The notes under the pieces were generated by a model, which searched no databases, had not been told where the DNA came from, and saw nothing but the letters and a program-made list of their open reading frames with translations. 32,000 nucleotides of DNA from Alphaproteobacteria bacterium. Its GTDB lineage: Bacteria; Pseudomonadota; Alphaproteobacteria; Rs-D84. Where the stretch lies: contig JAFVFD010000005.1 in NCBI GenBank assembly GCA_017475605.1, positions 30,001 to 62,000 of the forward strand. Reading direction: 5' to 3'. The position numbers were made by a program, and so were the translations under genes. Below, in pieces: positions 1 through 32,000 of the stretch (the first letter of the stretch is position 1; each line of letters starts with the position of its first letter).

Positions 1-2061
1 GCACTTGATGGATTAAATATCGCCCCACTGAACTTTAATCGTACGGCGGCAATGGACTTTGTGCGTGATGCGATTGAAAGTGCATCCCTTGCCGCGAAAA
101 TAGAAAAACTTTTCCCGACAAATACATATAACCCGACCGCGCCACAAACAGTCTTTCCGGGGTCCGCATGTCCAACCGATATCGATTCCGCGCACAACGC
201 ACCCCGCCCCACCCCGACAGTTGCCACACCGCAAAATAAAATCGCATCTGAATTTGTTGTGATTCGTACGACGGACGAACTGGACGCGTTTTTATCGGGT
301 GTAAAAAATGTAATCGCGTTTGATACAGAAACAACGGGCCTTAATCAGATATCCGATAAAATTGTCGGTATTTCGTTGGCAACCGATTCGTCGCGTGGCG
401 CATATATTCCAGTGCGGCATATAACCGCGGGTGGCGATTTATTCGCGACAAGTACGATTGCCCCAAATCAACTTGATTTGGACACTGTCCGCAAACATTT
501 GTGGCCCATCTTTACCAATACAAATATTGTAAAGGTTGGGCATAACCTTAAATACGATTTACACATTTTGGAAAATGAATCATGGGATACTACCGCGATT
601 CGTCCGATTGATGATACAATGCTGTTGTCGTATGCGTTACATGGTTCACTTCATGGGCATGGGCTGGACGAATTGGCGATAAAATATCTGGGACACACCG
701 ATATTGCTTTTTCATCACTTTTCCCCGCGGGCACACGCGATGCGGACAAACATTTTGATATGTTGCCGATTGACACCGCCGCGCCCTATGCCGCCGAAGA
801 TGCATCTGTATGCTTTGCGTTATACGAATTAATGCGGCCGGAAATTGACGCAAACGAAAAATTGCACGAATTATATGAAACATGTGATTTACCATTGATG
901 CCTATTTTGATGCGCATGGAACGCAACGGCGTGTTGGTAAATCGCGCGGGGCTGGCACAGCTGTCGGGGGCATTCCACGATCAACTGTCAAAATTGGAAA
1001 GTGAAATCTGGGAAATGGCCGGACATGAATTTAACATAGGCAGCCCTAAACAACTGGGCACTATTTTGTTTGATGAATTACACCTGCCGGAAAATCGGAA
1101 ACGTTCAACCGATGCAGAAACATTAAACGAAATGATTGATGCGCACCCAATAATTGAAAAGATTTTATCGTGGCGTTCAATCGCGAAGTTGGCTGGTACA
1201 TATGCCGATGCTTTGCCGAAACAGATTGCATCAGATGGTCGTATTCACACAACCTATTTACAGACCAGTACGAACACAGGCCGCCTTTCCAGTCGTGATC
1301 CAAACCTGCAAAACATTCCTATTAAAACCGAACTGGGCGAAGAAATTCGCAAATGCTTTGTTGCCCCCGCGGGACGCAAGTTGATTTCCGTTGACTATTC
1401 CCAGGTTCAATTAAGGTTGCTGGCGGATGTCGCAAATGTACACACGTTCCGCGACACATTTAACAACGGTGCCGATATTCACGAACAGACCGCACGCAAG
1501 ATTTTTAATATTCCAGCAAACACCCCCGTTCCAAAAGAGATGCGCCGCGCCGCAAAAACCGTTAACTTTTCCATCATATATGGCATATCGTCATTCGGAC
1601 TGGCGGGGCAATTGGGTGTATCGCGCGCCGCCGCCGCAGATATAATCAATTCATATATGGCCGGGATACCAGAAATCAAACAATACATTGATTATATACA
1701 TAAATTTGCGACCGAAAACGCGTGCGTTTACACCCCATGGGGCCGCCGCATAGAATTACCCGAAGTTAAAAACCCCCGCATGCGCGCATATGCCATGCGT
1801 GCCGCGGTTAACGCACCAATCCAGGGATTTGAAGCAGACATTGTTCGTCGTGCCATGGTGGAAATTGATAAAAACATCGTTCAACCAAATGCCAACATAA
1901 TCAAAATGATTATGCAGGTTCATGATGAAATAATATTTGAATGCGACGAAGACCGCGCCACCGAATTTGCGGAAAAAATTAAAACGGCGATGGAAACCGT
2001 AACCAAGATTTCTGTTCCCCTTGTTGCCGAATATATAATCGGTGAAAAGTGGGGAAAATAA
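1..2061 (+). CDS. polA: DNA polymerase I, 5'-partial (3'-5' exonuclease and polymerase domains lie in the window)
   Basis: The frame of the listed ORF (52..2061) stays open back to base 1, so the gene starts upstream of the window. The translation has the ExoI motif AFDTETTGL and family-A polymerase motifs A (VDYSQVQLRLLA), B (RRAAKTVNFSIIYG) and C (QVHDEIIFE). Confidence 0.95.
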   Translation, partial: ALDGLNIAPLNFNRTAAMDFVRDAIESASLAAKIEKLFPTNTYNPTAPQTVFPGSACPTDIDSAHNAPRPTPTVATPQNKIASEFVVIRTTDELDAFLSGVKNVIAFDTETTGLNQISDKIVGISLATDSSRGAYIPVRHITAGGDLFATSTIAPNQLDLDTVRKHLWPIFTNTNIVKVGHNLKYDLHILENESWDTTAIRPIDDTMLLSYALHGSLHGHGLDELAIKYLGHTDIAFSSLFPAGTRDADKHFDMLPIDTAAPYAAEDASVCFALYELMRPEIDANEKLHELYETCDLPLMPILMRMERNGVLVNRAGLAQLSGAFHDQLSKLESEIWEMAGHEFNIGSPKQLGTILFDELHLPENRKRSTDAETLNEMIDAHPIIEKILSWRSIAKLAGTYADALPKQIASDGRIHTTYLQTSTNTGRLSSRDPNLQNIPIKTELGEEIRKCFVAPAGRKLISVDYSQVQLRLLADVANVHTFRDTFNNGADIHEQTARKIFNIPANTPVPKEMRRAAKTVNFSIIYGISSFGLAGQLGVSRAAAADIINSYMAGIPEIKQYIDYIHKFATENACVYTPWGRRIELPEVKNPRMRAYAMRAAVNAPIQGFEADIVRRAMVEIDKNIVQPNANIIKMIMQVHDEIIFECDEDRATEFAEKIKTAMETVTKISVPLVAEYIIGEKWGK

Positions 2062-2063
2062 CT

Positions 2064-2096
2064 AAAAAACACCGCCCAAACGGGCGGTATTTTTTT
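2064..2096. terminator. Bidirectional rho-independent terminator between convergent polA and accDA
   Basis: Hairpin ACCGCCC-AAAC-GGGCGGT (2071-2088) is flanked by an A-run upstream and a T-run downstream. Confidence 0.8.
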
Positions 2097-3852
2097 AATG
2101 TTCATCGTGATCATGTAAATGTTCAGACGACGGGCCAAATATTTCCACATCACGCGTCATAGCCAGGAACTTTTCCGCACGACGCGCCGGCAGTTCGTCA
2201 ACAGGTATTGTTTCCAATTCACGAATTTGTTCCACGACCGCCGCCGCCAACATTTCCATTGTGGTTTGCCAATCATTATGCGCCCCACCGGATGGTTCAA
2301 CAATTATTTTATCAATAACATTCATATCCGCCATATCACGCGCAGTCAATTTCATCGCAGCGGACGCAACGGCGCGAAACTTGTTATCCTTCCACAAAAT
2401 AGATGCACATGATTCCGGCGCAATCACCGAATAAATCGCGTTTTCCAGCATCAACACCCGGTCGCCCGTTCCAATCGCGATTGCCCCACCGGAACCACCC
2501 TGGCCCACATTAACGGCGACATACGGTGTTTTTACACGTAACCCCGCCGATATAGTTGCGGCAATGGCCTGGGACTGACCGCGTTCTTCGCCTTCGCGAC
2601 CGGCAAAAGCCCCCGCCGTATCAAACAACGAAATAAGCGGCAAGTCAAACCGTTGGGCCAATTCCATCATACGCTGGGCCTTGCGATAACCATCTGGGTT
2701 TGGCATACCAAAACGATGTTTTTGTCGCGTTTCAATGGTGCGGCCTTGTTCCTGGCCGATTATCACCGCCGGTATCCCACGCCAATAACCAATGCCCGAA
2801 CCCATGGCGGCATCTTCGCCATATAAACGATCCCCCGCCAAATAGGTCCAATCGTCAACAATACCATTGATATAGTCCAAGAAATGCGGTCTGTTTTCAT
2901 GACGCGCCAATAATACCTTGTCATAGGCGGCATTTTCGCCCATACCACGAATCTTCTTAGAAGCATCGTATTTCGGTGTTGTAACCGAAATAGGCTTTGG
3001 TTCACGTGGTTGTTTGGTAAGTACCGCCAACACACGCGACAACGCATCGTGTAAATCGGCACGATTTACCACCATATCAACCATACCATGTTCATACAAA
3101 TATTCCGCCGTTTGGAATCCAGACGGTAATTTTTCACGAATATTTTGTTCAATAACACGACGGCCGGCAAAGCCGATACGCGCACCACTTTCCGCGATAT
3201 GAATATCGCCCAACATCGCAAAGGAAGCCGTTACCCCACCAAATGTTGGGTCGGTTAAAATCACAATATACGGAATCTTGTTCGCGTGTAATTTATTCAC
3301 CGCAACGGTTGTACGCGCCATCTGCATCAATGATAAGATATTTTCCTGCATACGTGCGCCACCACTTGATGTAACCATAACGAACGGTTGGTGTAATTCA
3401 AATGCGTGTTCCATACTGGCAATAATTCCGTCCCCGGCCGCGCGTCCCATAGACCCCATCATAAAGAATCCATTTAACACACAAACAGTTGTTGGCACCC
3501 CACCAACAACACCGTCCGCAGACACAACCGCATCATTTGCACCGGTGTCTTCGCGGGCTTCGGCCAGCCTTTCGGCATATGGCATACGGTCAACGAATTG
3601 TAACGGGTCATCAGACACCGTTGGCAATTCCAATTTTGTCCAGTTATTATTGTCAAACAATAAATCAAACCGCTGTTTTGGGTTCATCATGAACGCATGA
3701 TTACAGCGCGGACAGATATACAAATTATCCTTGTAATCTTTATAAAACACCAACCGCCCACACGATTCGCATTTAATCCACATTAATCTGCGGACGCGTT
3801 CATATCGGTCGCGGTTATCGTTTTTGATTCCTGTTTTTTTTCCAAAAAGCAT
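2095..3852 (-). CDS. accDA: Acetyl-CoA carboxylase carboxyltransferase, fused beta (AccD) and alpha (AccA) subunits
   Basis: One uninterrupted 585-codon frame. The N-terminal half has the AccD zinc ribbon (CESC-x15-CPRC) and beta core (SSGGARMQE, TDPTFGGVTASFA). From about residue 300 the sequence is AccA-like (RPHFLDYI, GMPNPDGYRKAQR, GQGGSGGAIAIG, SVIAPESCASILW). Confidence 0.9.
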   Translation of the reverse strand: MLFGKKTGIKNDNRDRYERVRRLMWIKCESCGRLVFYKDYKDNLYICPRCNHAFMMNPKQRFDLLFDNNNWTKLELPTVSDDPLQFVDRMPYAERLAEAREDTGANDAVVSADGVVGGVPTTVCVLNGFFMMGSMGRAAGDGIIASMEHAFELHQPFVMVTSSGGARMQENILSLMQMARTTVAVNKLHANKIPYIVILTDPTFGGVTASFAMLGDIHIAESGARIGFAGRRVIEQNIREKLPSGFQTAEYLYEHGMVDMVVNRADLHDALSRVLAVLTKQPREPKPISVTTPKYDASKKIRGMGENAAYDKVLLARHENRPHFLDYINGIVDDWTYLAGDRLYGEDAAMGSGIGYWRGIPAVIIGQEQGRTIETRQKHRFGMPNPDGYRKAQRMMELAQRFDLPLISLFDTAGAFAGREGEERGQSQAIAATISAGLRVKTPYVAVNVGQGGSGGAIAIGTGDRVLMLENAIYSVIAPESCASILWKDNKFRAVASAAMKLTARDMADMNVIDKIIVEPSGGAHNDWQTTMEMLAAAVVEQIRELETIPVDELPARRAEKFLAMTRDVEIFGPSSEHLHDHDEH

Positions 3853-4723: not shown

Positions 4724-5887
4724 CTATACATCAAAATTGTAATTTTTTACAGAACGCACGATTGCGGCGACCAATTTATCTTGGTGCGCGCCGGACTTTA
4801 ATAGTTTTTCTTCCGATGCGTTGGACAAATGTCCCAATTCAATCAATGCCCCCGGCACAGTTGAACGCAAAACTGCGAACGGCGCATGGCGAACACTGGG
4901 GCCCGCCTGGGCTTCTATCTTGTTCGAACGAAATGCACGCGCACAACCGTTGGCATATTCTTCACTCATTTCCGCAACGGCATGCTGTTGTAACGAAGAC
5001 AGTGCCGCACGAATATCGCGTTCGAATTCGGTAAAGCCATCAACCCCGATTTTATCAGCCGCGTTTTCTGATTCCGCCAATTTTTTCGCCTCTTCGTCAG
5101 ACGCTTTTTCGGACAATGTATAAATCGAAAAGCCCTTTACCGCGCGACTGGGGTTTGCATTCGCGTGCAGTGATATAAACAAATCGCCCTTTTTCTGTTC
5201 GGCAATTTCCGCACGACGCGCCAATTTCAAATAGGTATCATCACTGCGTGTCATAAATGTTTTAAACCCGGCGGCATCCAATTTAGAACGCAATTTTTTC
5301 GCAACCGATAAAACAATATCTTTTTCACGCGTCCCGTTTTTACCGATACACCCTGGATCCTTGCCCCCATGACCCGCATCGATAACTATTACGTGTTTTG
5401 TTGCGGCCGCCTTTGGCATATTCGCCCCCGCCGCCACAGAATCCGCTATTTTTTGCGCCGCGCCCGCCGAAAAATCAAGGACCAGCCGATAATCGTTATC
5501 GCCATTTGGTTCCAACAACATTATTTGCGATTTTTGTAATTGCGAAATCGGCTTGCGTAATGTTGCAATAATTTTTAAATGGTCGCCCGACTGCGTTTGC
5601 GTAATTGCGGAAACCAATGTACCCGATGCCAATGTTGGTTTTACCGATGCATCCGCAGACATATTTGCGATATCAACAACTAACTGATTTTCCGGGTATG
5701 ATAACGAATATGATGGTCGTGCCGATGTTTCAATCACCAGGCGGGTTTTATTTCCTGGCTGAACCCCCGTCCGCATTGACCGCAGGGCATTTCGGGCCGC
5801 AAACGCAACATGCGGCAAAATCATTGCCACAGAAAAGGTTAGTCCCCCCACCCCTAAAAATCTGCGTCGTGATATCTTCATTTTCAT
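4724..5887 (-). CDS. amiC: N-acetylmuramoyl-L-alanine amidase with Tat signal and AMIN domain
   Basis: Twin-arginine signal MKISRRRFLGVGG...VAFA, followed by an AMIN-like N-domain. The Amidase_3 core is present (VIVIDAGHGGKDPG ... FISLHANA). Confidence 0.85.
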   Translation of the reverse strand: MKMKISRRRFLGVGGLTFSVAMILPHVAFAARNALRSMRTGVQPGNKTRLVIETSARPSYSLSYPENQLVVDIANMSADASVKPTLASGTLVSAITQTQSGDHLKIIATLRKPISQLQKSQIMLLEPNGDNDYRLVLDFSAGAAQKIADSVAAGANMPKAAATKHVIVIDAGHGGKDPGCIGKNGTREKDIVLSVAKKLRSKLDAAGFKTFMTRSDDTYLKLARRAEIAEQKKGDLFISLHANANPSRAVKGFSIYTLSEKASDEEAKKLAESENAADKIGVDGFTEFERDIRAALSSLQQHAVAEMSEEYANGCARAFRSNKIEAQAGPSVRHAPFAVLRSTVPGALIELGHLSNASEEKLLKSGAHQDKLVAAIVRSVKNYNFDV

Positions 5888-5967: not shown

Positions 5968-7182
5968 TTATTTACTTACACAATTGGCAAAACTTTGCGC
6001 AACCAAAGATTTTTCTTCACTGCTCATTTGGCGCACCGGAATTATATAACACCGCGCACTGTCCCGCATAATAAACACCTTGGTTCCGCGAATATACGCG
6101 CGTTGCATATCGTCAATTTGCGCCGATGTCAAAAATGCATTTTGTGTCATTGACGAATTAGACATAGCCGCATTTACCACCTGATACGCGGTATTGTAAT
6201 CCCACATTTCCGAAAGTGTCGTTACATCCATCCATACCGACCATGTTTCATAAGGGTTTTCCTGAATTGCTTCTTTCCCAGGGAAAACGACACCCGTTAC
6301 CAATGCCGCCGCCGTTTGTAATGCGGTCGGTTCAGACGACGAAGACGAACCATGCGCAACCGTATTCAATTGCATATTGTCCCCGCAGGCCAGGTTCATA
6401 CGATTTGTATATCCAGCCAAAACCGCATCAACCGCATTTTGCCAATCAGCCGCCTTTTTATTAAGGTCCAGACTTACAATCTTTTCAGCCCAGCCCCAAA
6501 TGTTCGCACCAACATTCCCGGCATTTGCGAATCGGGTTACCATTTCCGCACTGCCCCCCGGGACACCCGCACCACAATAGTCGGTTAATTGCGTGGTCAA
6601 CATACTAGATGTTTCATTACCATATGCCAACGCAACCGAATGGCACGACATCGCGGCTTCTAATTCCTGACGACGTTGCAAACACAAATCAGAATGTGAT
6701 TTAGACAACTGTTCCGCCATATTCGCCATGGACAGATACGACATAACTTCCTGTTGTACATAGGATGGGCACAGACGCGCCGCCGTATTCATACCATTGA
6801 TACTGTTTTTCATATTCACATTATATTGTGGCAACAACACAGAAGTATCTTTCTGTAAACACAGCAACGCATAATTATACAATTCACTTTCCGTCGCATA
6901 TTGGCACCGACCACTGCGTTGTCCCGGCACAACCGCAACATCGCCACAATAGTCCGCCAGGCAACTATAAATCTTGGCCCGGCAAGCCGAATCCACGTCC
7001 GGTTGTGTTACCATATAATAGGTATTGCGTTGATTGGTTTTATATGCGTTGGCCAATGCCTGATTACCGCGCAGGCCAGTTGTAACCGATGTTGTACCAT
7101 AAATACCACGTGCCGAATCCGCCGCCCAAGAACTTGATGCGACCAAACCCAACACCGCAAATATTGCCAGCATATTTTTCAT
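5968..7182 (-). CDS. Secreted cysteine-rich protein of unknown function (12 Cys in the mature part)
   Basis: Sec signal MKNMLAIFAVLGLVASSSWA|A. I recognise no family. Carries a C-x6-C-x4-CG module (CRAKIYSCLADYCGD) that also occurs in the 824-aa and partial Cys-rich proteins at 28499-32000. It has its own terminator. Confidence 0.75.
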   Translation of the reverse strand: MKNMLAIFAVLGLVASSSWAADSARGIYGTTSVTTGLRGNQALANAYKTNQRNTYYMVTQPDVDSACRAKIYSCLADYCGDVAVVPGQRSGRCQYATESELYNYALLCLQKDTSVLLPQYNVNMKNSINGMNTAARLCPSYVQQEVMSYLSMANMAEQLSKSHSDLCLQRRQELEAAMSCHSVALAYGNETSSMLTTQLTDYCGAGVPGGSAEMVTRFANAGNVGANIWGWAEKIVSLDLNKKAADWQNAVDAVLAGYTNRMNLACGDNMQLNTVAHGSSSSSEPTALQTAAALVTGVVFPGKEAIQENPYETWSVWMDVTTLSEMWDYNTAYQVVNAAMSNSSMTQNAFLTSAQIDDMQRAYIRGTKVFIMRDSARCYIIPVRQMSSEEKSLVAQSFANCVSK

Positions 7183-13967: not shown

Positions 13968-13995
13968 TTGACAAATATTAATTATTGTCTATAAT
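13968..13995 (+). promoter_or_regulatory. Near-consensus sigma70 promoter of the Fic-like gene
   Basis: TTGACA (13968-13973), 16 nt spacer, TATAAT (13990-13995). The ATG at 14018 is preceded by AGGAAAA. Confidence 0.65.
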
Positions 13996-14017
13996 TATAT
14001 TGAACAAGCAGGAAAAA

Positions 14018-14752
14018 ATGGCAAAAACTTGTAAACAATTAAGATTACAGATTATGGCACACCAGCAAGAATTCTATCAAATTCTTGGGGCGCAGCATCA
14101 TATCAAACGCATAGAATCTTTTGTAAGTTATTTTTCCGACTGTTTCAGAACAGAAACCGCAAACCTTTATGTATGCGAAGTTCCAGACGAAGATCGCGAA
14201 TATGTTTTTGACTATGCAAAAACATTACCAAACGCACAAAACGCATTTAAATATGCGATGGGCACCCCAAAAAGTGCGCCCATAACATCGGACACACTGT
14301 ACGAAATTCATCGCCGCTTGGCACGCCATACCGATATTGTGGGTGGCGCATATCGTCAATTCGATGCGTTTACGATGAAACTGGGGGTACACGCACCGAC
14401 CTATGAAATTATGATTCAAAAACTGGATAACCTGCTGTTTCAAACAAATAATGACGAAATTGATGTGTTAACCCGCGCGATGAATGTACACTATGAACTT
14501 ATCGCACTACAACCGTTCGGCGACTATAACAAACGCGTTGCCCGCATTGTTGCTGATTCCATTTTGTTGAAAAACGGCCATCCACCATTTAGATTCGACA
14601 GAACAAACGACACCGAAGATTATTACAAGGCCCTGCGCGCGCGCGTTGAATGTGATGACAAAACATATGAAAAATATATGTTGGAAGATTTGAACTATTC
14701 GTGGAATAAATTGATTGCTATGGCAAAAAAATCAAGTTATAACCAATATTAA
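14018..14752 (+). CDS. Fic/DOC-fold protein with degenerate catalytic motif
   Basis: HYELIALQPFGDYNKRVARIVADSILLKNGHPPF aligns with the Fic core HxFx(D/E)GNGRxxR but reads QPFGDYNKRVAR (His to Gln, and both Gly residues lost). I chose the ATG at 14018 as the start. Confidence 0.7.
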   Translation: MAKTCKQLRLQIMAHQQEFYQILGAQHHIKRIESFVSYFSDCFRTETANLYVCEVPDEDREYVFDYAKTLPNAQNAFKYAMGTPKSAPITSDTLYEIHRRLARHTDIVGGAYRQFDAFTMKLGVHAPTYEIMIQKLDNLLFQTNNDEIDVLTRAMNVHYELIALQPFGDYNKRVARIVADSILLKNGHPPFRFDRTNDTEDYYKALRARVECDDKTYEKYMLEDLNYSWNKLIAMAKKSSYNQY

Positions 14753-20499: not shown

Positions 20500-21489
20500 C
20501 TAGGTTTGACAGTTACCTATGCTGTAACATACTGATCTAATTGACGGTATCATGGCTGAATACCCCCAACCTTTTACAGCACCACCATCTTCTGTACTGC
20601 ATGCACCGGTGTCGGTTGATACGGAACATGTGCCGTATGTTGTTGTAACCTTTACCCTTGTTGTTCCGTTGCCGGTTGTCGTACTGGACCTTCTACATGT
20701 ACTTCCCGAAACATACCATCCTGTTGGACATGTGGTTACTTTGTAATATGCCTGCATAAGACAGCAAAAACCACCAGATGACGTGCGCGAATTTTCACAC
20801 GCTGGCTCGGTTTGATATAAACGCAAAGTTGCATCCGTACTGCTATAAACATTAGTCCATGCCACAGAAGTACCACCATTATATGTACATGTATCTTGGC
20901 TATATGCCTGACAGCCTTCGTTGTCCCCACCACCAACTGGCACAATCTCTCCGCCGACCATGCACGTGTTATATGAAAATGTGTTGGAACAGCCGGATAC
21001 GCTGTACGTTCGACTCGATGTTGAATAACCTGTGTCGCATGTGTTACATGTGCGAACACGATATCCCCCAAAACAATAATCTGTATAACTACTGCAATTC
21101 GAAACTGTATTTTGGACAGTGGTACTATTACTACAATTGGACGCACTGTAAGTCTTTGTGGTACATTGGGTGGAACCACTGCCACTTGATGTACAATAGC
21201 CCAAACTTACATTGCAACCAGTGTATGTATCAGTAAAAGTATATACTGCACGCGATCCTGAAGTACAGATGCCTGCATCCAACTGTGCACCACCACATGA
21301 TTGATAACACCTTGTACCATATCTGACTGTACCTGGATTAGAACAGGCACCAAGATTAATCTCTAGACGTTCCTCATCGCCGGCCAGACAAGCCCCAACA
21401 GTACACACCAACGCATTTGCGGTATTGGTAAAAAATGGTGCCACAGCCAGTATACACCCAAACCACAATACCCGTAATATCCGATTCAT
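20500..21489 (-). CDS. Secreted Cys/Ser/Thr/Gly/Tyr-rich protein (about 27 Cys in about 300 mature residues)
   Basis: Signal MNRILRVLWFGCILAVAPFFTNTANA|L. RBS AAAGGGGGAAAA. Low-complexity Cys-rich sequence with CxxC (CNTCDTGY) and CPTGWY motifs. I recognise no family. Confidence 0.7.
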   Translation of the reverse strand: MNRILRVLWFGCILAVAPFFTNTANALVCTVGACLAGDEERLEINLGACSNPGTVRYGTRCYQSCGGAQLDAGICTSGSRAVYTFTDTYTGCNVSLGYCTSSGSGSTQCTTKTYSASNCSNSTTVQNTVSNCSSYTDYCFGGYRVRTCNTCDTGYSTSSRTYSVSGCSNTFSYNTCMVGGEIVPVGGGDNEGCQAYSQDTCTYNGGTSVAWTNVYSSTDATLRLYQTEPACENSRTSSGGFCCLMQAYYKVTTCPTGWYVSGSTCRRSSTTTGNGTTRVKVTTTYGTCSVSTDTGACSTEDGGAVKGWGYSAMIPSIRSVCYSIGNCQT

Positions 21490-22050: not shown

Positions 22051-22875
22051 TTATTTGTCCAAAGCGTTCATGATTTGATCGTATGGAATCGCGCCTGGGA
22101 ACGCCTGGTCGCCAATGACCAAGAATGGTGTTCCGTTGATTTCAAAACGTTGTGCCAATTCACGAACATTTGACAATTCACGTGTAACGACTTCGTTTTT
22201 CATATCGGCTTTCAACTTGTCTGTATCCAAGCCTGCTTCACGAGCCATCTTCATGATGTTTGCTTCGACTTTTTCACCAATTTTAGACTGATCTTTCAAG
22301 TCGTCTTGGCTATAGAAATCACGTGTCATCATCATGTCAACAAAGACTGCTGCTTTGTCTGCGTCCTGCATTTTTGCAGCGATAGCAGCCTTGGCTGGAC
22401 CATCGGACAATGCGCCATGGATAGAGAAGTTTTTGATAACTACGCGTACATCGTCGCGTTCATCCAAAACACGTGCCAATTCGCCATGTACACGACGGCA
22501 GAACGGGCAGCTAAAGTCTGTCCAAACAAAGATTGTCTTTTTGGCATCACGATTACCCAAAATTGGGGCATCTGCCATCATCTTTGCTGCGTTTGAACGA
22601 ACATACGAACGGACTGCTTTGTTCTTTTCAGCCTGCTGTTGTTCCTGCATCGCGGAAATCATTGTCTGCACAATGCCAGGATTAACATGTGTCAGATAGT
22701 ACGGAATGTACATGCGTGTAACCGCACCCGCAACCAAGATAATCGCAACCAGTTTGATTACCTTTTTACATAAAATAACGCCCATCGTTGGTTTCTTTTC
22801 GTCGCCCTTGACCAGCATGCCGCCGAACAAGAACAATGCGATACCCAATAACAAGGCTAAGATTGTCCAAGTCAT
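22051..22875 (-). CDS. Membrane-anchored DsbA-family thiol:disulfide oxidoreductase
   Basis: Strong RBS AAGGAGAA. Two N-terminal hydrophobic helices, then a thioredoxin fold with a CPFC active site (FVWTDFSCPFCRRVH) and the DsbA-type C-terminal part (INGTPFLVIG). Confidence 0.85.
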   Translation of the reverse strand: MTWTILALLLGIALFLFGGMLVKGDEKKPTMGVILCKKVIKLVAIILVAGAVTRMYIPYYLTHVNPGIVQTMISAMQEQQQAEKNKAVRSYVRSNAAKMMADAPILGNRDAKKTIFVWTDFSCPFCRRVHGELARVLDERDDVRVVIKNFSIHGALSDGPAKAAIAAKMQDADKAAVFVDMMMTRDFYSQDDLKDQSKIGEKVEANIMKMAREAGLDTDKLKADMKNEVVTRELSNVRELAQRFEINGTPFLVIGDQAFPGAIPYDQIMNALDK

Positions 22876-25190: not shown

Positions 25191-25958
25191 ATGATAAGTC
25201 CGTTTCACAGAAATCTTAACCGTATGACCTTGTTTTTAGCCCTTATTATTGCGGGCATCATACTGTTTTTTGACCCGTTTATGCAGATTGCTACGGCGAA
25301 CATTATACTTAATGGCATCATTATTGGGACGGCACTTTTCGGAATTGGGCTTTGTTTTGTCCAGATGTTCCGCCTGTTGCCTGAACATCGGTGGTTATAT
25401 GGTTATATTGATGGGGAACGCGGTGCGGCCCTGCCCCCGCGCGTGTTGCGTCCGGCGGCATTGATGTTACATGCGCGCCCGGTGCGTATATCTGCGGCGG
25501 CATTGAACAGCATGTTGGATATGATTTTATTGCGGTTTGAAGATGACCGCAATTCCGTACGCTATGTAACAAACACTTTGATATTCTTGGGGTTACTTGG
25601 GACATTTTGGGGGTTGCTTATGACGGTTGGCGGTTTTGCCGAATTGATTGGCGGCCTGGATATGACCGATGAAACCGTATTGGAATCGATGCAGATTGGC
25701 CTGGCACGACCATTGGCGGGTATGGCAACCGCATTTACAAGTTCTATTCTTGGCCTGGGGGGAAGTTTGATTGTCGGCTTTCTGGGGTTGCAGATTCAAT
25801 CGGTTCAGAACGCGATGTTCCATGAAATCGAAGAATATTTTGCGGCACACACGCACACCGCAACGCCGGATGTTACCATGGCACAGATTGGGTCTGCGGC
25901 ACGCGCATTAAACAAAACCGTTCAACACTTTGACCGAACGGTCGCAAAACTGGGATAA
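25191..25958 (+). CDS. MotA/TolQ/ExbB-family proton-channel protein
   Basis: Four hydrophobic helices. The C-terminal pair carries the family signature (LIFLGLLGTFWGLL and LAGMATAFTSSILGLGGSLIVGF). Confidence 0.8.
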   Translation: MISPFHRNLNRMTLFLALIIAGIILFFDPFMQIATANIILNGIIIGTALFGIGLCFVQMFRLLPEHRWLYGYIDGERGAALPPRVLRPAALMLHARPVRISAAALNSMLDMILLRFEDDRNSVRYVTNTLIFLGLLGTFWGLLMTVGGFAELIGGLDMTDETVLESMQIGLARPLAGMATAFTSSILGLGGSLIVGFLGLQIQSVQNAMFHEIEEYFAAHTHTATPDVTMAQIGSAARALNKTVQHFDRTVAKLG

Positions 25959-25993: not shown

Positions 25994-27064
25994 ATGCTTA
26001 ATATTCGTTATCGTGAAAGTACAAATACATGGCCTGGGTTCGTAGATTTATTTTCGAACCTGGTTATCATATTGATATTCTTGCTTATTATGTTCGTGTT
26101 TTTGTGGACCACAACAAGTGTGTTTAACAAACAAAGTGGTGCAAAGACCGTTGCCGAATTACGCGCCGAAACCGCGGACCAGGCACAAACAATTGAACAA
26201 ATGCGCGCTGACGAGCAAGAGGCCCGCCGCCTGCTGATTATGGCACGAAACGAATTGGAAACATTGGACAACGACCGCGCCGAACTCATCAATGAATTGA
26301 ATGAAACTGATTTAAGTTTGGCCGACCTGGCAACCGCATACGAAGAAAAAATTGCGGCCCTTACCCAGCAATTAAACCAGGCCAACGTTGACAAGGAACA
26401 GATAGCACAACTGGAACAGGAACGCGCAAAATTACACGATGAAATGTCCGCCCAACGCGCCGAATTGGCCGATCAAATTACAAAATTACAGGCGGCATTA
26501 GACGCGGCCGAAGAAAAGGCGCGCACCCAGGAAGTACAATATGTTGAAATGTCGAACCGGCTTAACAAGGCCCTGGCGGACAAGGTTGCCGAATTAAACC
26601 AAATGTCGCAATATCAATCGGCATTTTACCGCGCAATCAAAGATGCACTGGGCGACCGTACAACCGTTCGTGCCGATGGCGACCGCTTTATTGTATCAAG
26701 TGATATTTTATTCGCCAGTGGTTCATACAATTTGTCGCCGGACGGAAAACGCCAATTACAATTGATTGCCAATGTAATCAAAGATTTCGAAAACAAGATT
26801 CCATCAGATGTCGATTGGATTATCCGCGTTGACGGCCATACCGATAAAAAACCGGTTGTCCCCGGCACGCGTGCATACCGAAACAATATGCAACTGTCGT
26901 TCCTGCGGGCAACGGCGGTGGCAAATGAATTGGCGAAAAATGGGGTATCGCAACGCCGCCTTTTGCCAACGGGCTTTGGTGATTTACACCCGGTTGAATT
27001 GGGTAATTCCGCAGCCGACCTGCAAAAGAACCGCCGTATCGAATTACAATTAACAAATCGGTAA
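25994..27064 (+). CDS. MotB/OmpA-family peptidoglycan-binding protein with long central coiled coil
   Basis: N-terminal TM with a MotB-type conserved Asp (WPGFVDLFSNLVIILIF). About 190 aa of heptad-like Q/E/A/L-rich sequence. C-terminal OmpA-like domain (RVDGHTD...NMQLSFLRATAVANEL...NRRIELQL). Confidence 0.85.
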   Translation: MLNIRYRESTNTWPGFVDLFSNLVIILIFLLIMFVFLWTTTSVFNKQSGAKTVAELRAETADQAQTIEQMRADEQEARRLLIMARNELETLDNDRAELINELNETDLSLADLATAYEEKIAALTQQLNQANVDKEQIAQLEQERAKLHDEMSAQRAELADQITKLQAALDAAEEKARTQEVQYVEMSNRLNKALADKVAELNQMSQYQSAFYRAIKDALGDRTTVRADGDRFIVSSDILFASGSYNLSPDGKRQLQLIANVIKDFENKIPSDVDWIIRVDGHTDKKPVVPGTRAYRNNMQLSFLRATAVANELAKNGVSQRRLLPTGFGDLHPVELGNSAADLQKNRRIELQLTNR

Positions 27065-27072
27065 AAAAGAAC

Positions 27073-27101
27073 AAAAAAAATCGCCCAAATGGGCGATTTT
27101 T
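27073..27101. terminator. Bidirectional terminator between the motB-like and ygiW-like genes
   Basis: Hairpin TCGCCC-AAAT-GGGCGA (27081-27096) is flanked by an A-run and a T-run. Confidence 0.8.
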
Positions 27102-27476: not shown

Positions 27477-27554
27477 TTTTTCCCCCATTGTTTATTTTTT
27501 ATCCGCTGGTTATATTTTATCAAACAATGTTGGGTATTATCATAGGAACGAAAT

Positions 27555-27582
27555 AACAAAACGCACCAAACGGTGCGTTTTA
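27555..27582 (-). terminator. Terminator after mscS
   Basis: Hairpin ACGCACC-AAAC-GGTGCGT (27561-27578). On the minus strand it is followed by TTTTGTTATTT. Confidence 0.7.
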
Positions 27583-27589
27583 CTAATCA

Positions 27590-28489
27590 CTATTTCACAA
27601 TATGAACATCCATTTGTGGAAATGGAAAATGAACTTTCTTTTTCGGCAGCACCGCATATATCTGTTCATTTATATCTGCCATCACCGGATACATATCTGT
27701 ATAAGATGTCCAAAAACGCAAAACCAAATCAACCGAACTGTCCGACAGGCTTGATACGAACACAACTGGTTCCGGTGTTTTCAATATACGTTTGTCTTTT
27801 TTCACAATTTCCAATATCGCCCGGCGTGCGGCATCAACACTGTCGCCATAAGAAATACTTACCGTCAAATCGGTACGGCGATTTTTTCCATGTGATAAAT
27901 TAGTAATGATTCCATTTGCCAACGCGCCATTCGGTAAAAAGACAACCTGGTTATCAAATGTGTGTAATTCGGTTGTGAATATCATTATTTTTTTCACAAC
28001 ACCAACCTTGCCACTGGCGGTTTCAACGGTATCGCCAACCCGGAACGGTTTGAACATTAAAATGACAATACCACCCGCAAAGTTTTGTAATGTTCCCTGT
28101 AATGCCATACCAACCGCCAACGATGCCGCGCCCAACACCGCGACAATAGATGTCATTTGAACACCAACGGTTGTTAACACAATTATGAAAACAAATATTT
28201 TAAGCAGGATATTTATAAACGACCCCAGGAAAGATTGTAACGATGGATCAAAGTTACGAATTTCCATCATGCGCTTAAAAGACCTGGTAATTTTATTAGC
28301 CAACCAAATACCGCCACTTAAAATTAAAACCGCGACCAAAATTTTAAGACCAAAATCTACCGTTGCCTGAATAAGCGATTCCAGTGCCGCATCAATACCA
28401 GATTTTTCAATATTCAAAATTTCGGTTGGATTTTTTAATATTTCTTGTGTGGTTTCTAATACCGTTTGAACTTCCTGGTCCATTTTCAT
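27590..28489 (-). CDS. mscS: Small-conductance mechanosensitive channel (MscS family)
   Basis: Three TM helices plus the MscS beta domain (FKPFRVGDTVETASGKVGVVKKIMIFTTELHTFDNQVVFLPNG). The start lies 9 nt after the stop of the upstream Cys-rich gene, and AGGGG sits in that gap. Confidence 0.9.
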   Translation of the reverse strand: MKMDQEVQTVLETTQEILKNPTEILNIEKSGIDAALESLIQATVDFGLKILVAVLILSGGIWLANKITRSFKRMMEIRNFDPSLQSFLGSFINILLKIFVFIIVLTTVGVQMTSIVAVLGAASLAVGMALQGTLQNFAGGIVILMFKPFRVGDTVETASGKVGVVKKIMIFTTELHTFDNQVVFLPNGALANGIITNLSHGKNRRTDLTVSISYGDSVDAARRAILEIVKKDKRILKTPEPVVFVSSLSDSSVDLVLRFWTSYTDMYPVMADINEQIYAVLPKKKVHFPFPQMDVHIVK

Positions 28490-28498
28490 ACCCCTAAA

Positions 28499-30973
28499 CT
28501 ACATTGCTATGTCTTCACATTTTTCTTCAGAAGCAGTCGTTTCACAAGATGTATTTCTACTGTTGTGGAACCAAGATTTGCTGCCCGTTGTTTTACATGA
28601 TTCCGTAACAGTTTGTGTACAAATATGACAATTTCTTGTTTCACGCGAAAATACAGCTGTAACAGTTTTGGACAAACCACCACCGTTAAATGTTGTCCCC
28701 CCAAGGTATCCATCATTATTGAATGTAACCCCGTTACTTCTGATGACCCCGGCACCACCACGGGTAAGGTCTTCTGTTGAAAGGCCAGAACCGACATCAT
28801 AACTTATTGCGTATGGCGTATTCAATTCTGCTGTCGGTGTTGTAATTCCACCCCCAGCACCACCATTTTCGGCAATTTTTTGGCACATATATTGCGCCAA
28901 ATCTGCGGACGCATTTTTAGTTGCATCTGAAATAGCGGTATTTAATTTGTTGTTATAATTATCCTGGGCTTTACGTAATGCTGCAATTGCTATTTGCATT
29001 TTCACTTGGTTCAACAAGTTTGGAAAACGTGCCTCTGTTCTTTCGTTTTTACCTGTTATTTGTTTTAAATTGCGCCCACTAATACAATATTGAATTTCTG
29101 GGTCTTGTTCAATAATAGAAATTGTTCTATTAATAGTCCCGGCAATATTGTTTAATTCTTCTTCTATGTTAAATATAATTTCTTCGGCGTTATCAACACC
29201 TGTATTATTTTCACGAACCTTGGCTAAATAATCTTGAACACCTATTTCACCAGGTTTCAGTTTCGTTTCGCCGTCAATTGTTTTCCCAGATGCATCACCA
29301 ATCTTCAAAGAGCCAAAAGAAATCATACCCGTTACACGATATGTGGTCCCATCTTTCTGACTGCGCAAAGACCCTGTACCGATGGTGTCATCACTGGCAA
29401 ATTTATTACAATCTATTGTACTGCCGCACAATTCTAACATTTTGTTATCAACTAAATTTTGACAATTGTTCAATGCGGCATTATCAATATTCAGATATAA
29501 CCCCATAAGCATAGAATCTAAATCATCCATAGAAAACTCTGGATTATTAGCCTTGCACACAACTAATTTATCCAATGGGCAAATATCATGAATATAACTG
29601 TAATCCATACCGATACAGTTGGAAAAATCTTTACCGCAACGCGTATCATCGGTAAAACATTCTTTGACCTCTGTTGTACATGCGTCCACACGCATTGCCG
29701 CCAATTTATCCTTAACATAACCCCAAATAAGCGGTTCCATACGTTCGCATGGGTCTATTTCAACCTTACAAAAACTGCGCGCCATATCGGGCCGCGACAA
29801 GCACGCATCCATTGTCGCGACACCCTTGCCGGCGATATCATCACGACAAGCCGTCTGAATACACTTTGAAATTGTCCCTAAACAAGATTGACGAAATCTA
29901 GATTCAGCATTTGATTCCGCAACACGAATTGTTGGGGCCGCTTCGCGCAGAAATGCGGGCCAAACCATATCGCGTACGGCAACACATTTATTCAAAACAT
30001 TTTCACAAATATTACGTTTCGCATTCAACATTTCCATAGTTGATGCCGTAATATCAAAAACATCAACTGTTTGAACTTTGGTTTTAGCCGTACTTGTTGC
30101 TGCATTATTCTGCATATTTTCCGATGCTATTGTTGAAACACAATTCACCCAATCCGCCCCACAGGCATCGTCCGTCTGCATACATTTGCGGAATTCAACC
30201 ATACATTGCCCCAGGTCGTATTTATTTGCTTCTTCGAAACTTTCCTTTAACGCGGCCCGTACATCCGCATTGGCATTAGCCAGTTCCGCGTTCGCCTTAG
30301 CCTTGCTCTGTGCAATACTGTTTTCAAATGCCTTGCAATCAGATGTAATTTGACGTGCGTATAATTGGTGCAAGAAATTTAAATCTTTATTACAAGATAC
30401 CGGCATTTGTTCGCGGCACAATTCGTCGGCGGCATTAAACAGGGCATTGCCAGTCTTGTCGGCAATATTTTCCACAGAATCTTCAAACAAATCTTCATCG
30501 AAATTAAATGCTGAATTATCCCACAGGGCCAACAAATTTGCGCGTTTCTGTTCCTTGGTTTCTTCTAAATTAGAATATACAACATTGCCATTATTATCAT
30601 ATTGGCGCGTTCCATTAAAGATAATATCTGCCTGGGCACCGGCCTTGACACGTTCAACCTCAACCGTACGGATACGTTCCGCCTCGGACAAAGTATCCTG
30701 AATAGATGCCAGTTGCGATTCAAGATTTGCATTCAAATCACTACACGCACAACTGCCCCCGTTGACATTATCCATTATACAAAACTGATCCATACAACCA
30801 TAATAGGCATCATAACAACTTTGGTCATATACCCCAGTTGCCGCGACACGCGCCCGAACCGTTGTACCAGTTTGAATTGCCGATTGTTTTTTTGTAACCG
30901 CCGCATTAGCACCGACACCCACCACAACAGATGCCGCCAGTACACATAACGATAAAGTTTTTTTTGATATCAT
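28499..30973 (-). CDS. Large secreted cysteine-rich protein, 824 aa with 36 Cys in the mature part, unknown function
   Basis: I moved the start to MISKKTLSLCVLAASVVVGVGANA|A (RBS GGAGAGG); the longer ORF would overlap the upstream gene. It has many C-x6-C pairs and two copies of a C-x6-C-x6-C-x6-C unit. The C-terminus RNCHIC...CEDIAM is shared with the upstream paralog. Confidence 0.8.
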   Translation of the reverse strand: MISKKTLSLCVLAASVVVGVGANAAVTKKQSAIQTGTTVRARVAATGVYDQSCYDAYYGCMDQFCIMDNVNGGSCACSDLNANLESQLASIQDTLSEAERIRTVEVERVKAGAQADIIFNGTRQYDNNGNVVYSNLEETKEQKRANLLALWDNSAFNFDEDLFEDSVENIADKTGNALFNAADELCREQMPVSCNKDLNFLHQLYARQITSDCKAFENSIAQSKAKANAELANANADVRAALKESFEEANKYDLGQCMVEFRKCMQTDDACGADWVNCVSTIASENMQNNAATSTAKTKVQTVDVFDITASTMEMLNAKRNICENVLNKCVAVRDMVWPAFLREAAPTIRVAESNAESRFRQSCLGTISKCIQTACRDDIAGKGVATMDACLSRPDMARSFCKVEIDPCERMEPLIWGYVKDKLAAMRVDACTTEVKECFTDDTRCGKDFSNCIGMDYSYIHDICPLDKLVVCKANNPEFSMDDLDSMLMGLYLNIDNAALNNCQNLVDNKMLELCGSTIDCNKFASDDTIGTGSLRSQKDGTTYRVTGMISFGSLKIGDASGKTIDGETKLKPGEIGVQDYLAKVRENNTGVDNAEEIIFNIEEELNNIAGTINRTISIIEQDPEIQYCISGRNLKQITGKNERTEARFPNLLNQVKMQIAIAALRKAQDNYNNKLNTAISDATKNASADLAQYMCQKIAENGGAGGGITTPTAELNTPYAISYDVGSGLSTEDLTRGGAGVIRSNGVTFNNDGYLGGTTFNGGGLSKTVTAVFSRETRNCHICTQTVTESCKTTGSKSWFHNSRNTSCETTASEEKCEDIAM

Positions 30974-31005
30974 GCCCCTCTCCCCCGATTTGACGCACGA
31001 TGCGA

Positions 31006-32000
31006 TTACATATTTATATCTTCGCAAGATTCAATTTCTTGGCAGAATTCTTCTTTACCCCCCGAAGCAAAACCCATAAGTCCACCACCAATCAAACCTA
31101 CGACACCACCGATTGCCGTTCCCCAGCCAGGTGTTACCATTGTGCCCGCCGAAGCACCCGCCGCCGAGGCACCCGCACCAGCCTTTAACGCAGATGTCCA
31201 TTTGCTTTCGCCACCTGTTTCACAAACCTGCTGCATACGGCAAACATGGCAATTACGTAATTCTGGTTCAAAATTTACCGAACGAATATAACTGTAATTT
31301 TTGCTACCTTGTTTTGGTGTTTCAACCGCATATGTGTTATAGCAATTCTGACGCGCTTTTTCGACATCTTGTTCGCGGGACAATTCCGCAATACGCGATT
31401 CCAACGCACGCAAGGCACGATTTTCCGCACTTATATTTGCAATCAACTTTGCACTGTTAAACACACTTGTACCCAAACTGGCACGTCCCGCTGGTTTTTG
31501 ACTATCTTGACACGCAGCAACGGTTATATCTTTTTCAAATTGAGCAAAGAAAGCATCTACTGCGTTTGATGCATTTGCGCGAACTTCCGACCGCAATTCC
31601 GCCATTCCTTCTTCCGAATCAGGCAGAGTCATTAACGAAGCGACCGTATCATCATTTGGCAAACAAGACATATCTGTACCACACACACGTCCCAATTGAT
31701 CACCAAAATAATTCAAACACCCCTGCATCAAACGATAATCCATCTGCATCAAAGTTGCCTGTAATATGATATCGAACTGTGTTTCATTTTTACAGGATGG
31801 GAACATAGATTGTGGACATAATGCCGCGATTTCGTTTGATTTTTTGCCAAGACATTCCGGCGCAGTAAAGTTCTGACCACATTTATCGCGTAAACATTTA
31901 TCTACATCGTTTTGACAAAATTGAGTCCGCAAATAACCCAACTTATCATTAACCGCGGAACGAATACCCGGCACTAATTCTTCGCATTCTGTGATAACCG
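31006..32000 (-). CDS. Cysteine-rich protein, 5'-partial, paralog of the 824-aa protein, with C-terminal glycine-zipper segment
   Basis: The frame stays open from the listed GTG (31974) to the window edge (...ITECEEL-VPGIRS...), so the gene starts outside the window. Carries CQNDVDKCLRDKCG, RNCHVC...., GWGTAIGGVVGLIGGGLMGFASGG and the terminal CEDINM. Confidence 0.75.
   Translation of the reverse strand, partial: VITECEELVPGIRSAVNDKLGYLRTQFCQNDVDKCLRDKCGQNFTAPECLGKKSNEIAALCPQSMFPSCKNETQFDIILQATLMQMDYRLMQGCLNYFGDQLGRVCGTDMSCLPNDDTVASLMTLPDSEEGMAELRSEVRANASNAVDAFFAQFEKDITVAACQDSQKPAGRASLGTSVFNSAKLIANISAENRALRALESRIAELSREQDVEKARQNCYNTYAVETPKQGSKNYSYIRSVNFEPELRNCHVCRMQQVCETGGESKWTSALKAGAGASAAGASAGTMVTPGWGTAIGGVVGLIGGGLMGFASGGKEEFCQEIESCEDINM

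Follow-up and report, generated by a model that had tools for sequence, protein, structure and literature searches.

Two adjacent minus-strand genes at the high end of a 32,000-nucleotide stretch of an alphaproteobacterial genome from the Rs-D84 lineage (contig JAFVFD010000005.1, positions 30,001 to 62,000; hereafter the window) very probably encode members of a real and new family of disulfide-rich exported proteins. The genes, termed A and B here, belong to a conserved cluster, D-C/B-A, whose two other genes, C and D, also encode exported cysteine-rich proteins. The family appears to be previously undescribed, restricted to one lineage and unnamed.

Tandem paralogs of an unassigned family

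Gene A (28499..30973, minus strand) encodes a Sec-exported protein of 824 amino acids (aa) with 36 mature cysteines. It is unmatched by family models, and its product is 100% identical to an ortholog deposited under the accession P0001 / MBR2286252.1 as 'hypothetical protein, Alphaproteobacteria bacterium'. The start codon is an ATG with GGGGGAGAGGGG just 5' of it; the TTG start of the mechanical open reading frame (ORF) call, which would give 842 aa, is an artefact. Cysteines account for 4.5% of the protein, and of the 37 in total one is located within the signal peptide (MISKKTLSLCVLAASVVVGVGANA, followed by AV), leaving 36 in the mature chain. As read from the sequence, the signal peptide (aa 1-24; 30902..30973, minus strand) consists of K4K5, a hydrophobic core and a cleavage site between ANA and A, and the same pattern is found in the orthologs of A.

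Gene B is cut by the window edge. Its 3' part (31006..32000, minus strand) covers the last 330 of 724 aa, and the reading frame is open from 31006 up to the edge. The full length was taken from a longer public contig (L001:7794-9968), which is identical to the window over the compared stretches. The 32-nt spacer between B and A (30974..31005, minus strand) contains the ribosome-binding site GGGGGAGAGGGG and lacks a terminator.

The two products are clearly related. BLASTP aligns A with the window part of B over 130 aa at 28% identity (E=3e-14), and a segment around an RNCHxC motif is matched in addition (E=2e-4). In a composition-preserving shuffle, the A-B similarity reached z=16 when only the part of B inside the window was used and z=63 with both proteins at full length, so the likeness is not due to the cysteine-rich composition of both proteins. 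Since the cysteine positions are also colinear over the entire length, A and B are, judged by their sequences, true tandem paralogs. A preliminary description of this stretch had reported two minus-strand ORFs, one of 824 aa and one of more than 330 aa running off the window, and both are present. It had also proposed their paralogy, and all three segment pairs quoted for it were found; the shuffle test it had suggested as a check for cysteine composition gave the values above. Likewise, the clean Sec signal and 36 mature cysteines it gave for A are borne out, and the RNCHxC match agrees with the shared C-terminal module that it described. Only its word 'giant' is too strong for proteins of 724-824 aa.

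An exhaustive HMMER search returned 828 clusters (50% identity) at E<1e-3, of which 261 were found at E<1e-30. The best 150 of the 828 clusters are all A-type proteins, mostly with a length of 800-1150 aa and a shortest member of 231 aa, and the full-length members among them contain 30-54 cysteines. When GTDB was scanned with each species represented by one genome, the family was found in 306 species. The best 80 of these are gut metagenome-assembled genomes (MAGs) labelled Alphaproteobacteria, Candidatus Enterousia or 'Rickettsiales', together with one mislabelled Bacteroides fragilis bin. All database records for the family that name an organism are reduced-genome gut Alphaproteobacteria MAGs, and the family is present in every sampled genome of Rs-D84 / Candidatus Enterousia. 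Enterousia is placed in the uncultured order Rs-D84, with genomes of ~0.75-1.0 Mb that encode neither a respiratory chain nor flagella (PMC12306168). A contig deposited as 'Bacteroides fragilis' (L052, CAVGNU010000011.1) contains a complete D-C/B-A-mscS cluster and probably stems from Enterousia, having been mis-binned or mislabelled.

The preliminary description could not assign the two proteins to any family, and the same outcome was obtained with database searches. Pfam, NCBIfam, PHROGs and PADLOC gave nothing meaningful, neither for the four proteins A-D nor for 59 more distant members, and PDB sequence searches with a single sequence and two profiles gave no match. Foldseek searches with a predicted model of A returned nothing significant from PDB, where the lowest E was 0.57, or from BFVD, where it was 0.04 with a template modelling score (TM) <0.1; weak PDB matches of ~90 columns to levivirus coat and CapZ beta-sheets were non-significant. 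With nothing meaningful from PHROGs and PADLOC and the BFVD result just given, a phage or defence origin finds no support. The literature on Rs-D84 or Enterousia in combination with 'cysteine-rich' contained no description of the A-D proteins.

The conserved cluster and the neighbouring mscS gene

The cluster is arranged in the order D, C, infA, B, A, with the C-D pair divergent from B-A. C (813 aa) and D (218 aa) are located beyond the high end of the window, across infA from B (L001:4145-7306, minus strand), and the four genes together take up ~7.7 kb of the genome. Synteny was counted for the best 80 of the 306 GTDB species loci, with the loci that could be scored as denominators. B is directly upstream of A in 75/75 genomes, C is divergent and upstream in 67/67, and D comes after C in 64 of 67. 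C is paralogous to A and B (shuffle z=27 and z=19, respectively) and colinear with both, and it has, like them, an N-terminal C-x6-C-x4-C-x9-C-x-C knot and a CG-x-D-[FWY]-x2-C motif. D, in turn, was ruled out as a paralog of A, B or C (z ~0-1). The conserved unit is this four-gene D-C/B-A cluster and not A-mscS.

Orthologs of A share 63-76% identity and those of B mostly 64-72% (range 54-85%). At the same locus, the values are 58-80% for MscS and 33-84% for the stress-protein BOF/YgiW, so that A and B are at least equally conserved. In a termite-gut relative (L084), the B-type gene comes after M23-peptidase and OmpA-like genes on the same strand.

A promoter-like sequence of the sigma-70 type, TTGCAC-N17-TGaTAAAAT, is located 5' of B and is common to 70 species. 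The promoter of infA adjoins it back-to-back, and the conserved ribosome-binding site reads GTAGGnnGG. Within this region (L001:7652-7793 and its equivalents in the 70 species loci), two TTGCAn -35 boxes form an inverted repeat, and an extended -10 (TGaTAAAAT) is found on the B side of the infA/B promoter region. The leaders of C and B have TAATTGTAG-AAGG in common.

Downstream of A, the window contains mscS, the gene for a small-conductance mechanosensitive channel (27590..28489, minus strand; true start probably 28483). The preliminary description had proposed a shared transcript for the cysteine-rich pair and this channel, based on a 9-nt gap with a ribosome-binding site and without a terminator. 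The gap is present: 9 nt separate the stop of A (28499-28501) from the first mscS ATG (28489), with AGGGG between them, or 15 nt if the second ATG (28483) is used, which is preferred by the database gene call and by the spacing of the ribosome-binding site. No terminator-like hairpin was found between B, A and mscS, and an intrinsic-terminator-like hairpin with a 14-bp stem and a T run (27554..27585, minus strand) is located 3' of mscS, where it would close the unit. Due to the short gap, the missing internal terminator and the terminator after mscS, co-transcription of B-A-mscS is likely in this genome. This part of the earlier proposal is therefore probable, whereas the linkage itself is not conserved. 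Directly after A, the species genomes have mscS in only 30/73 cases, BOF/YgiW in 22/73 and neither in 21/73, and in distant termite-gut relatives the A-type member is followed by DsbA (L084) or a HigB toxin (L086). The adjacency across relatives that would mark a conserved operon partner of MscS, and that the preliminary description had suggested looking for, is thus missing. The position of mscS is incidental and reflects the local neighbourhood rather than a functional module.

Cysteine pairing and predicted architecture

Alignments of the family have a mean identity of 22-33%, and cysteines account for nearly all of their invariant columns. The few cysteines that do vary were followed in 150 diverse A-type proteins, and their loss is paired (numbering of A). 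Cysteines 376 and 391 were lost together in nine proteins and never singly (phi 1.0), as were 439 and 465 (six together, none singly, phi 1.0). For 785/819, 83 joint losses compare with four single ones (phi 0.95), for 364/409 five with four (phi 0.74) and for 793/810 13 with 12 (phi 0.64). In addition, the number of mature cysteines is 36 in 117/120 A orthologs and 116/120 B orthologs, and it is even in 129/150 diverse members. Paired loss and even counts argue for intramolecular disulfides in A and B and are not predicted by metal sites; most likely, each of the two proteins contains ~18 such bonds.

The same statistics bear on the C-terminus. In A, C785-C819 and C793-C810 are inferred to be disulfide pairs, and the cysteine of the terminal CEDIxM motif would most likely be bonded to the second cysteine of RNCHxC. 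Such a bond would explain why the two motifs travel together. The preliminary description had considered the conserved end as a sorting, anchoring or cross-linking signal; for its cysteine, the 83 joint against four single losses of C785/C819 point to an intramolecular clamp instead of a cross-linking or sorting role.

C and D differ from this even pattern. C orthologs have 29-39 mature cysteines in steps of two, an odd number in 58/64, and D orthologs have nine in 46/47. This indicates one spare cysteine each in C and D, which could possibly form an inter-chain disulfide and hence a covalent C-D pair. At a distance of 5.6 kb, the window encodes a thiol:disulfide oxidoreductase of the DsbA type (22051..22875, minus strand), whose N-terminal membrane anchor spans ~100 aa. 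An ortholog with 44% identity (L084:12917-13756) is located immediately downstream of the A-type gene in the termite-gut relative. The DsbA of the window is a likely oxidase for the A/B family.

The proteins start with a short N-terminal segment that is conserved, continue with a low-complexity linker that varies, and then comprise a cysteine knot, helices and a C-terminal beta module, in this order. The knot of A (aa 53-79; 30737..30817, minus strand; CYDAYYGCMDQFC...GGSCACSD) has the pattern C-x6-C-x4-C-x9-C-x-C already mentioned, recurs in B and C and does not vary within the family. The helical body of ~650 aa includes an internally duplicated C-x6-C-x6-CG-x-D-[FWY]-x2-C module. Copy 1 (aa 257-378; 29840..30205, minus strand) starts with C-x6-C-x6-CG-x-D-W-x2-C and is predicted to be helical, and copy 2 (aa 432-518; 29420..29680, minus strand) gives the best alignment with B (E 3e-14). 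In an hhalign self-comparison of A, the two copies matched each other with a probability of 89% (E 2e-6). The C-terminal beta-rich module of A (aa 724-824; 28502..28804, minus strand) comprises RNCHIC (C782, C785), C793, C810 and the terminal KCEDIAM (C819). The corresponding tail of B (31009..31056, minus strand) reads KEEFCQEIESCEDINM, and CED[IV]NM is the end of 118/120 B-family proteins.

An AlphaFold2 (AF2) model of A from a 79-sequence alignment reached a predicted local distance difference test score (pLDDT) of 70.9, compared with 59.6 from an alignment of 27 close orthologs. In this model, long helices are predicted for aa 51-702 with a small beta insert at 537-580, followed by the beta module at 724-823. 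The regularly spaced, presumably helix-stapling cysteines resemble Helicobacter Hcp / Sel1-like repeats and eukaryotic twin-CX9C CHCH proteins in concept only. Unlike Sel1 proteins (Helicobacter Hcp, Legionella EnhC) and CHCH proteins, the family has C-x6-C-x6-C-x6-C spacing with a CGxDF turn, and it is matched by neither the Sel1 nor the CHCH hidden Markov models (HMMs). With regard to an outer-membrane beta-barrel with a C-terminal beta-signal, the final residue of the family tails is M, F, Y or L, and position -3 is occupied by I or V. The last 100 aa, however, are polar and contain cysteines, and they are predicted to form a small beta module, not a barrel.

B has a glycine-zipper-like hydrophobic loop (31057..31197, minus strand; TSALKAGAGASAAGASAGTMVTPGWGTAIGGVVGLIGGGLMGFASGG), which is inserted between the cysteines equivalent to C793 and C810 of A. 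It comprises 47 aa, is rich in G and A with the small-xxx-small spacing of glycine zippers, and is conserved in the orthologs as well as in the termite-gut B-type protein, which ends in SCEDVNM. Signal peptides aside, it is the only segment of A, B and C with Kyte-Doolittle windows >1.4, and it is predicted to act as a membrane anchor. The loop (GWGTAIGGVVGxxGGG...) resembles glycine-zipper hairpins (Gly-zipper_Omp PF13488, Gly-zipper_YMGG PF13441, the TraT hairpin), which are its best matches, all below threshold. In contrast to the small glycine-zipper domains of lipoproteins, the B hairpin is inserted in a loop that a predicted disulfide closes, at the C-terminal end of a protein of 724 aa. 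Anchoring of C or B as a lipoprotein was rejected because the cysteine in the signal peptide is not conserved and all orthologs have signal peptidase I sites of the type AxA followed by AVR.

Genomic surroundings and possible functions

Additional cysteine-rich exported proteins are encoded outside the cluster. At least one Enterousia genome contains a second A-type paralog elsewhere, beside rpoA-rplQ, which is followed by five more cysteine-rich exported ORFs. At this locus (L088:10001-22904, from the same Enterousia assembly as L013), the paralog has 967 aa and 38 cysteines, and the ORFs after it have 591 aa with 23 cysteines, 244 with 9, 702 with 28, 288 with 20 and >511 with 21. In the window, a T/S/G-rich exported ORF of 329 aa with 28 cysteines (20500-21489, minus strand) has no Pfam match and was ruled out as a relative of D by BLASTP. 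Another exported ORF of 404 aa with 12 cysteines (5968-7182, minus strand) adjoins amiC (4724-5887). Its N-terminus (CRAKIYSCLADYCG...GRC) resembles the cysteine knot of the family, and an ortholog with 74% identity is found in L044; the hhalign comparison of the 404-aa ORF with the family profile was non-significant (probability 3%). In view of the extra ORFs in the window and at the second Enterousia locus, a cysteine-rich exported proteome is a trait of the lineage.

The other genes of the window are chromosomal housekeeping genes, namely polA, accDA, amiC, prfB, obg, ctpA, tyrS, tsf, rpsB, dsbA, recO and rplI-rpsR-rpsF. PolA (669 aa; 52-2061, plus strand) has the 3'-5' exonuclease and polymerase domains, while the 5'-3' exonuclease domain is unmatched. 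AccD and AccA of the acetyl-CoA carboxylase carboxyltransferase are fused in a single ORF of 585 aa with a Zn-ribbon and the carboxyltransferase beta and alpha parts (2095-3852, minus strand). A Fic-domain protein (13985-14752, plus strand) is encoded between ctpA and an M23 / EnvC-like peptidase. A stator-type pair consists of a MotA/ExbB/TolQ-like A subunit of 255 aa (25191-25958, plus strand) and a MotB/OmpA-like partner of 356 aa with a long coiled-coil insert (25994-27064, plus strand). PADLOC matched it to ZorA/ZorB (E 1e-11 and 9e-22), with the A subunit being far too short for ZorA. In other species, this pair often adjoins the D-C/B-A cluster, and the lineage is reported to be without flagella. 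Between the convergent BOF and motB-like genes, a hairpin with an 11-bp stem and T runs on both strands (27076-27101) looks like a bidirectional terminator.

As a function of the A/B family, a structural role in the cell envelope is put forward tentatively. In this proposal, the membrane-anchored DsbA would form the intramolecular disulfides of A, B and C, which are exported by Sec. These disulfides would brace the elongated helical A and B proteins, with one bond tying the CEDIxM tail to RNCHxC. B would be held in the membrane by the glycine-zipper-like hairpin within its last disulfide loop, with A and C as soluble or associated partners, and the three proteins together would form a rigid disulfide-braced scaffold of the periplasm or outer envelope. 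C and D could be joined covalently through their unpaired cysteines, and B-A, which form one conserved unit with the divergent C-D, would be expressed from the conserved sigma-70-type promoter. A core structural role is suggested by the universal presence of the family in the sampled genomes, the conservation of A and B, and the M23 and OmpA-like neighbours in L084. The explanation as a whole, in which the new family and its structural function in the envelope are taken jointly, falls slightly short of an even chance.

The closest functional analogue is OmcB/OmcA from the outer membrane complex (COMC) of chlamydiae, without homology. In both cases, large and small Sec-exported cysteine-rich proteins are encoded side by side in a reduced-genome, host-associated Gram-negative bacterium. 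The chlamydial proteins depend on Dsb, and a stiffening of the envelope by disulfides has been proposed for them (PMC6752827); a Dsb oxidase is likewise encoded in the genome studied here (DsbA, 22051-22875, minus strand). The analogy has limits, as there is no sequence or HMM similarity and no Pfam match for the family, the disulfides of A and B are apparently intramolecular (even counts, paired loss) instead of intermolecular, and the Rs-D84 lineage keeps its peptidoglycan machinery.

Several observations weigh against the structural function or the novelty of the fold. The even cysteine counts in A and B speak against the intermolecular cross-links of the chlamydial analogue. Peptidoglycan genes are retained, with an amidase and an M23 peptidase in the window and MreB, RodA and MrdA encoded in Rs-D84 (PMC12306168), so a protein exoskeleton replacing the wall is not needed. 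The codon adaptation index (0.61-0.65) is unremarkable compared with that of ribosomal genes (0.72-0.80). The confidence of the AF2 model of A is only moderate, with a predicted template modelling score (pTM) of 0.42, and the fold comparison spans PDB and BFVD, so that a distant fold relative beyond them is possible. Finally, the best Pfam match of the B loop (aa 662-708) is a glycine-zipper model whose score of 18.9 bits (E 1.4e-3) falls below the cut-off of 25, and the B protein of the window itself scores 9.4 bits.

The main rival explanation, although unlikely, is that the proteins are surface adhesins or parts of a cell-contact apparatus which attaches to a partner microbe or the host mucosa for nutrients. 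Disulfide bracing is typical of proteins in harsh extracellular settings. The shape of the proteins is long, elongated and helical, their low-complexity linkers vary, and many more cysteine-rich exported ORFs are found in Rs-D84 / Enterousia genomes. Rs-D84 bacteria are metabolically poor, without glycolytic steps, respiration and standard transporters, and a dependence on partner cells via unknown membrane proteins has been proposed (PMC12306168). However, a route across the outer membrane is not evident, as there is no autotransporter barrel, lipobox or adjacent secretion system, and Pfam searches revealed no known adhesin domain. Moreover, A and B are as conserved as, or more conserved than, neighbouring inner-membrane and periplasmic proteins, unlike typical adhesins. 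Since their conservation at least equals that of MscS and BOF, a core structural role fits better than a fast-evolving surface antigen.

An osmotic or mechanosensing module, in which the cysteine-rich pair is functionally coupled to MscS, is improbable. The 9-15-nt gap between A and mscS, the lack of a terminator between them, the strong terminator after mscS and the stress-protein BOF/YgiW gene coming next would fit such a module. Against it stand the genes found after A in other genomes, with mscS in only 30/73, BOF in 22 and neither in 21, and with DsbA or the HigB toxin in distant relatives.

Even less probable are metal-binding or redox proteins with reduced cysteines that ligate Zn, Fe or Fe-S or serve as a thiol buffer. 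The very high cysteine content of 4.5% would agree with this, as would the host being a strict fermenter without a respiratory chain, in which quinone-driven reoxidation by DsbB is not obvious. Nevertheless, the cysteines are gained and lost in pairs and not in threes or fours, the mature counts are even, the spacing is C-x6-C on helices without serial CxxC/CxxCH metal or haem motifs, and two distant lineages show synteny with a DsbA oxidase.

A relationship to TraN, the mating-pair-stabilisation protein of F-type conjugation, is scarcely credible. It is suggested by the name 'IncF plasmid conjugative transfer protein TraN' of UniRef100_A0A9D1JWE5 (= P0062, an ortholog of A) and by a similar format, as Sec-exported proteins of ~600-800 aa with >20 conserved cysteines, in TraN ~600 aa and 22 cysteines, all presumed to be in intramolecular disulfides (PMC9246713). 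Yet the Pfam and NCBIfam TraN HMMs were unmatched by A and B (E<=1), P0062 (E<=10) and 50 diverse members (E<=0.1), comparing the family profile A1 with F TraN in hhalign gave a probability of 7.1%, tblastn of A against 72,556 plasmids returned nothing at E<=1, and Foldseek against PDB gave neither TraN nor any match with E<0.5. TraN consists largely of beta structure, with an N-terminal beta-sheet domain and a tip formed by a beta-sandwich (PMC9246713), whereas A is mostly alpha, its model being helical to ~aa 700, and the family genes are chromosomal core genes in a housekeeping context (infA, mscS, BOF, rpsF-rpsR-rplI, recO, dsbA, clpPX, pgk) without tra genes or a type IV secretion system. 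With HMM, profile, tblastn, fold and context all negative, the TraN name of A0A9D1JWE5 is a mis-annotation, and this misleading UniRef label is corrected here.

The uncultured Rs-D84 / Enterousia bacteria have genomes of <~1 Mb and are widespread in the guts of humans, livestock, birds and termites. As all genomes examined encode the A-D proteins, of which A and B are conserved like their housekeeping neighbours, these proteins are likely to be central to the build of the cells or to their interactions. The family represents a new cysteine-stapled helical architecture and yields testable disulfide predictions. For an anaerobe that does not respire, an extensive exported proteome rich in disulfides and linked to DsbA is unusual, and it prompts the question of what drives oxidative folding and re-oxidises DsbA. 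As a speculative and rather doubtful extension, the D-C/B-A proteins and the other cysteine-rich exported ORFs could build an unrecognised disulfide-braced envelope layer, with B as the glycine-zipper membrane anchor, a covalent C-D heterodimer and A as the main strut. If this is true, such a layer would set the rigidity of the envelope or mediate the contact with partner cells.

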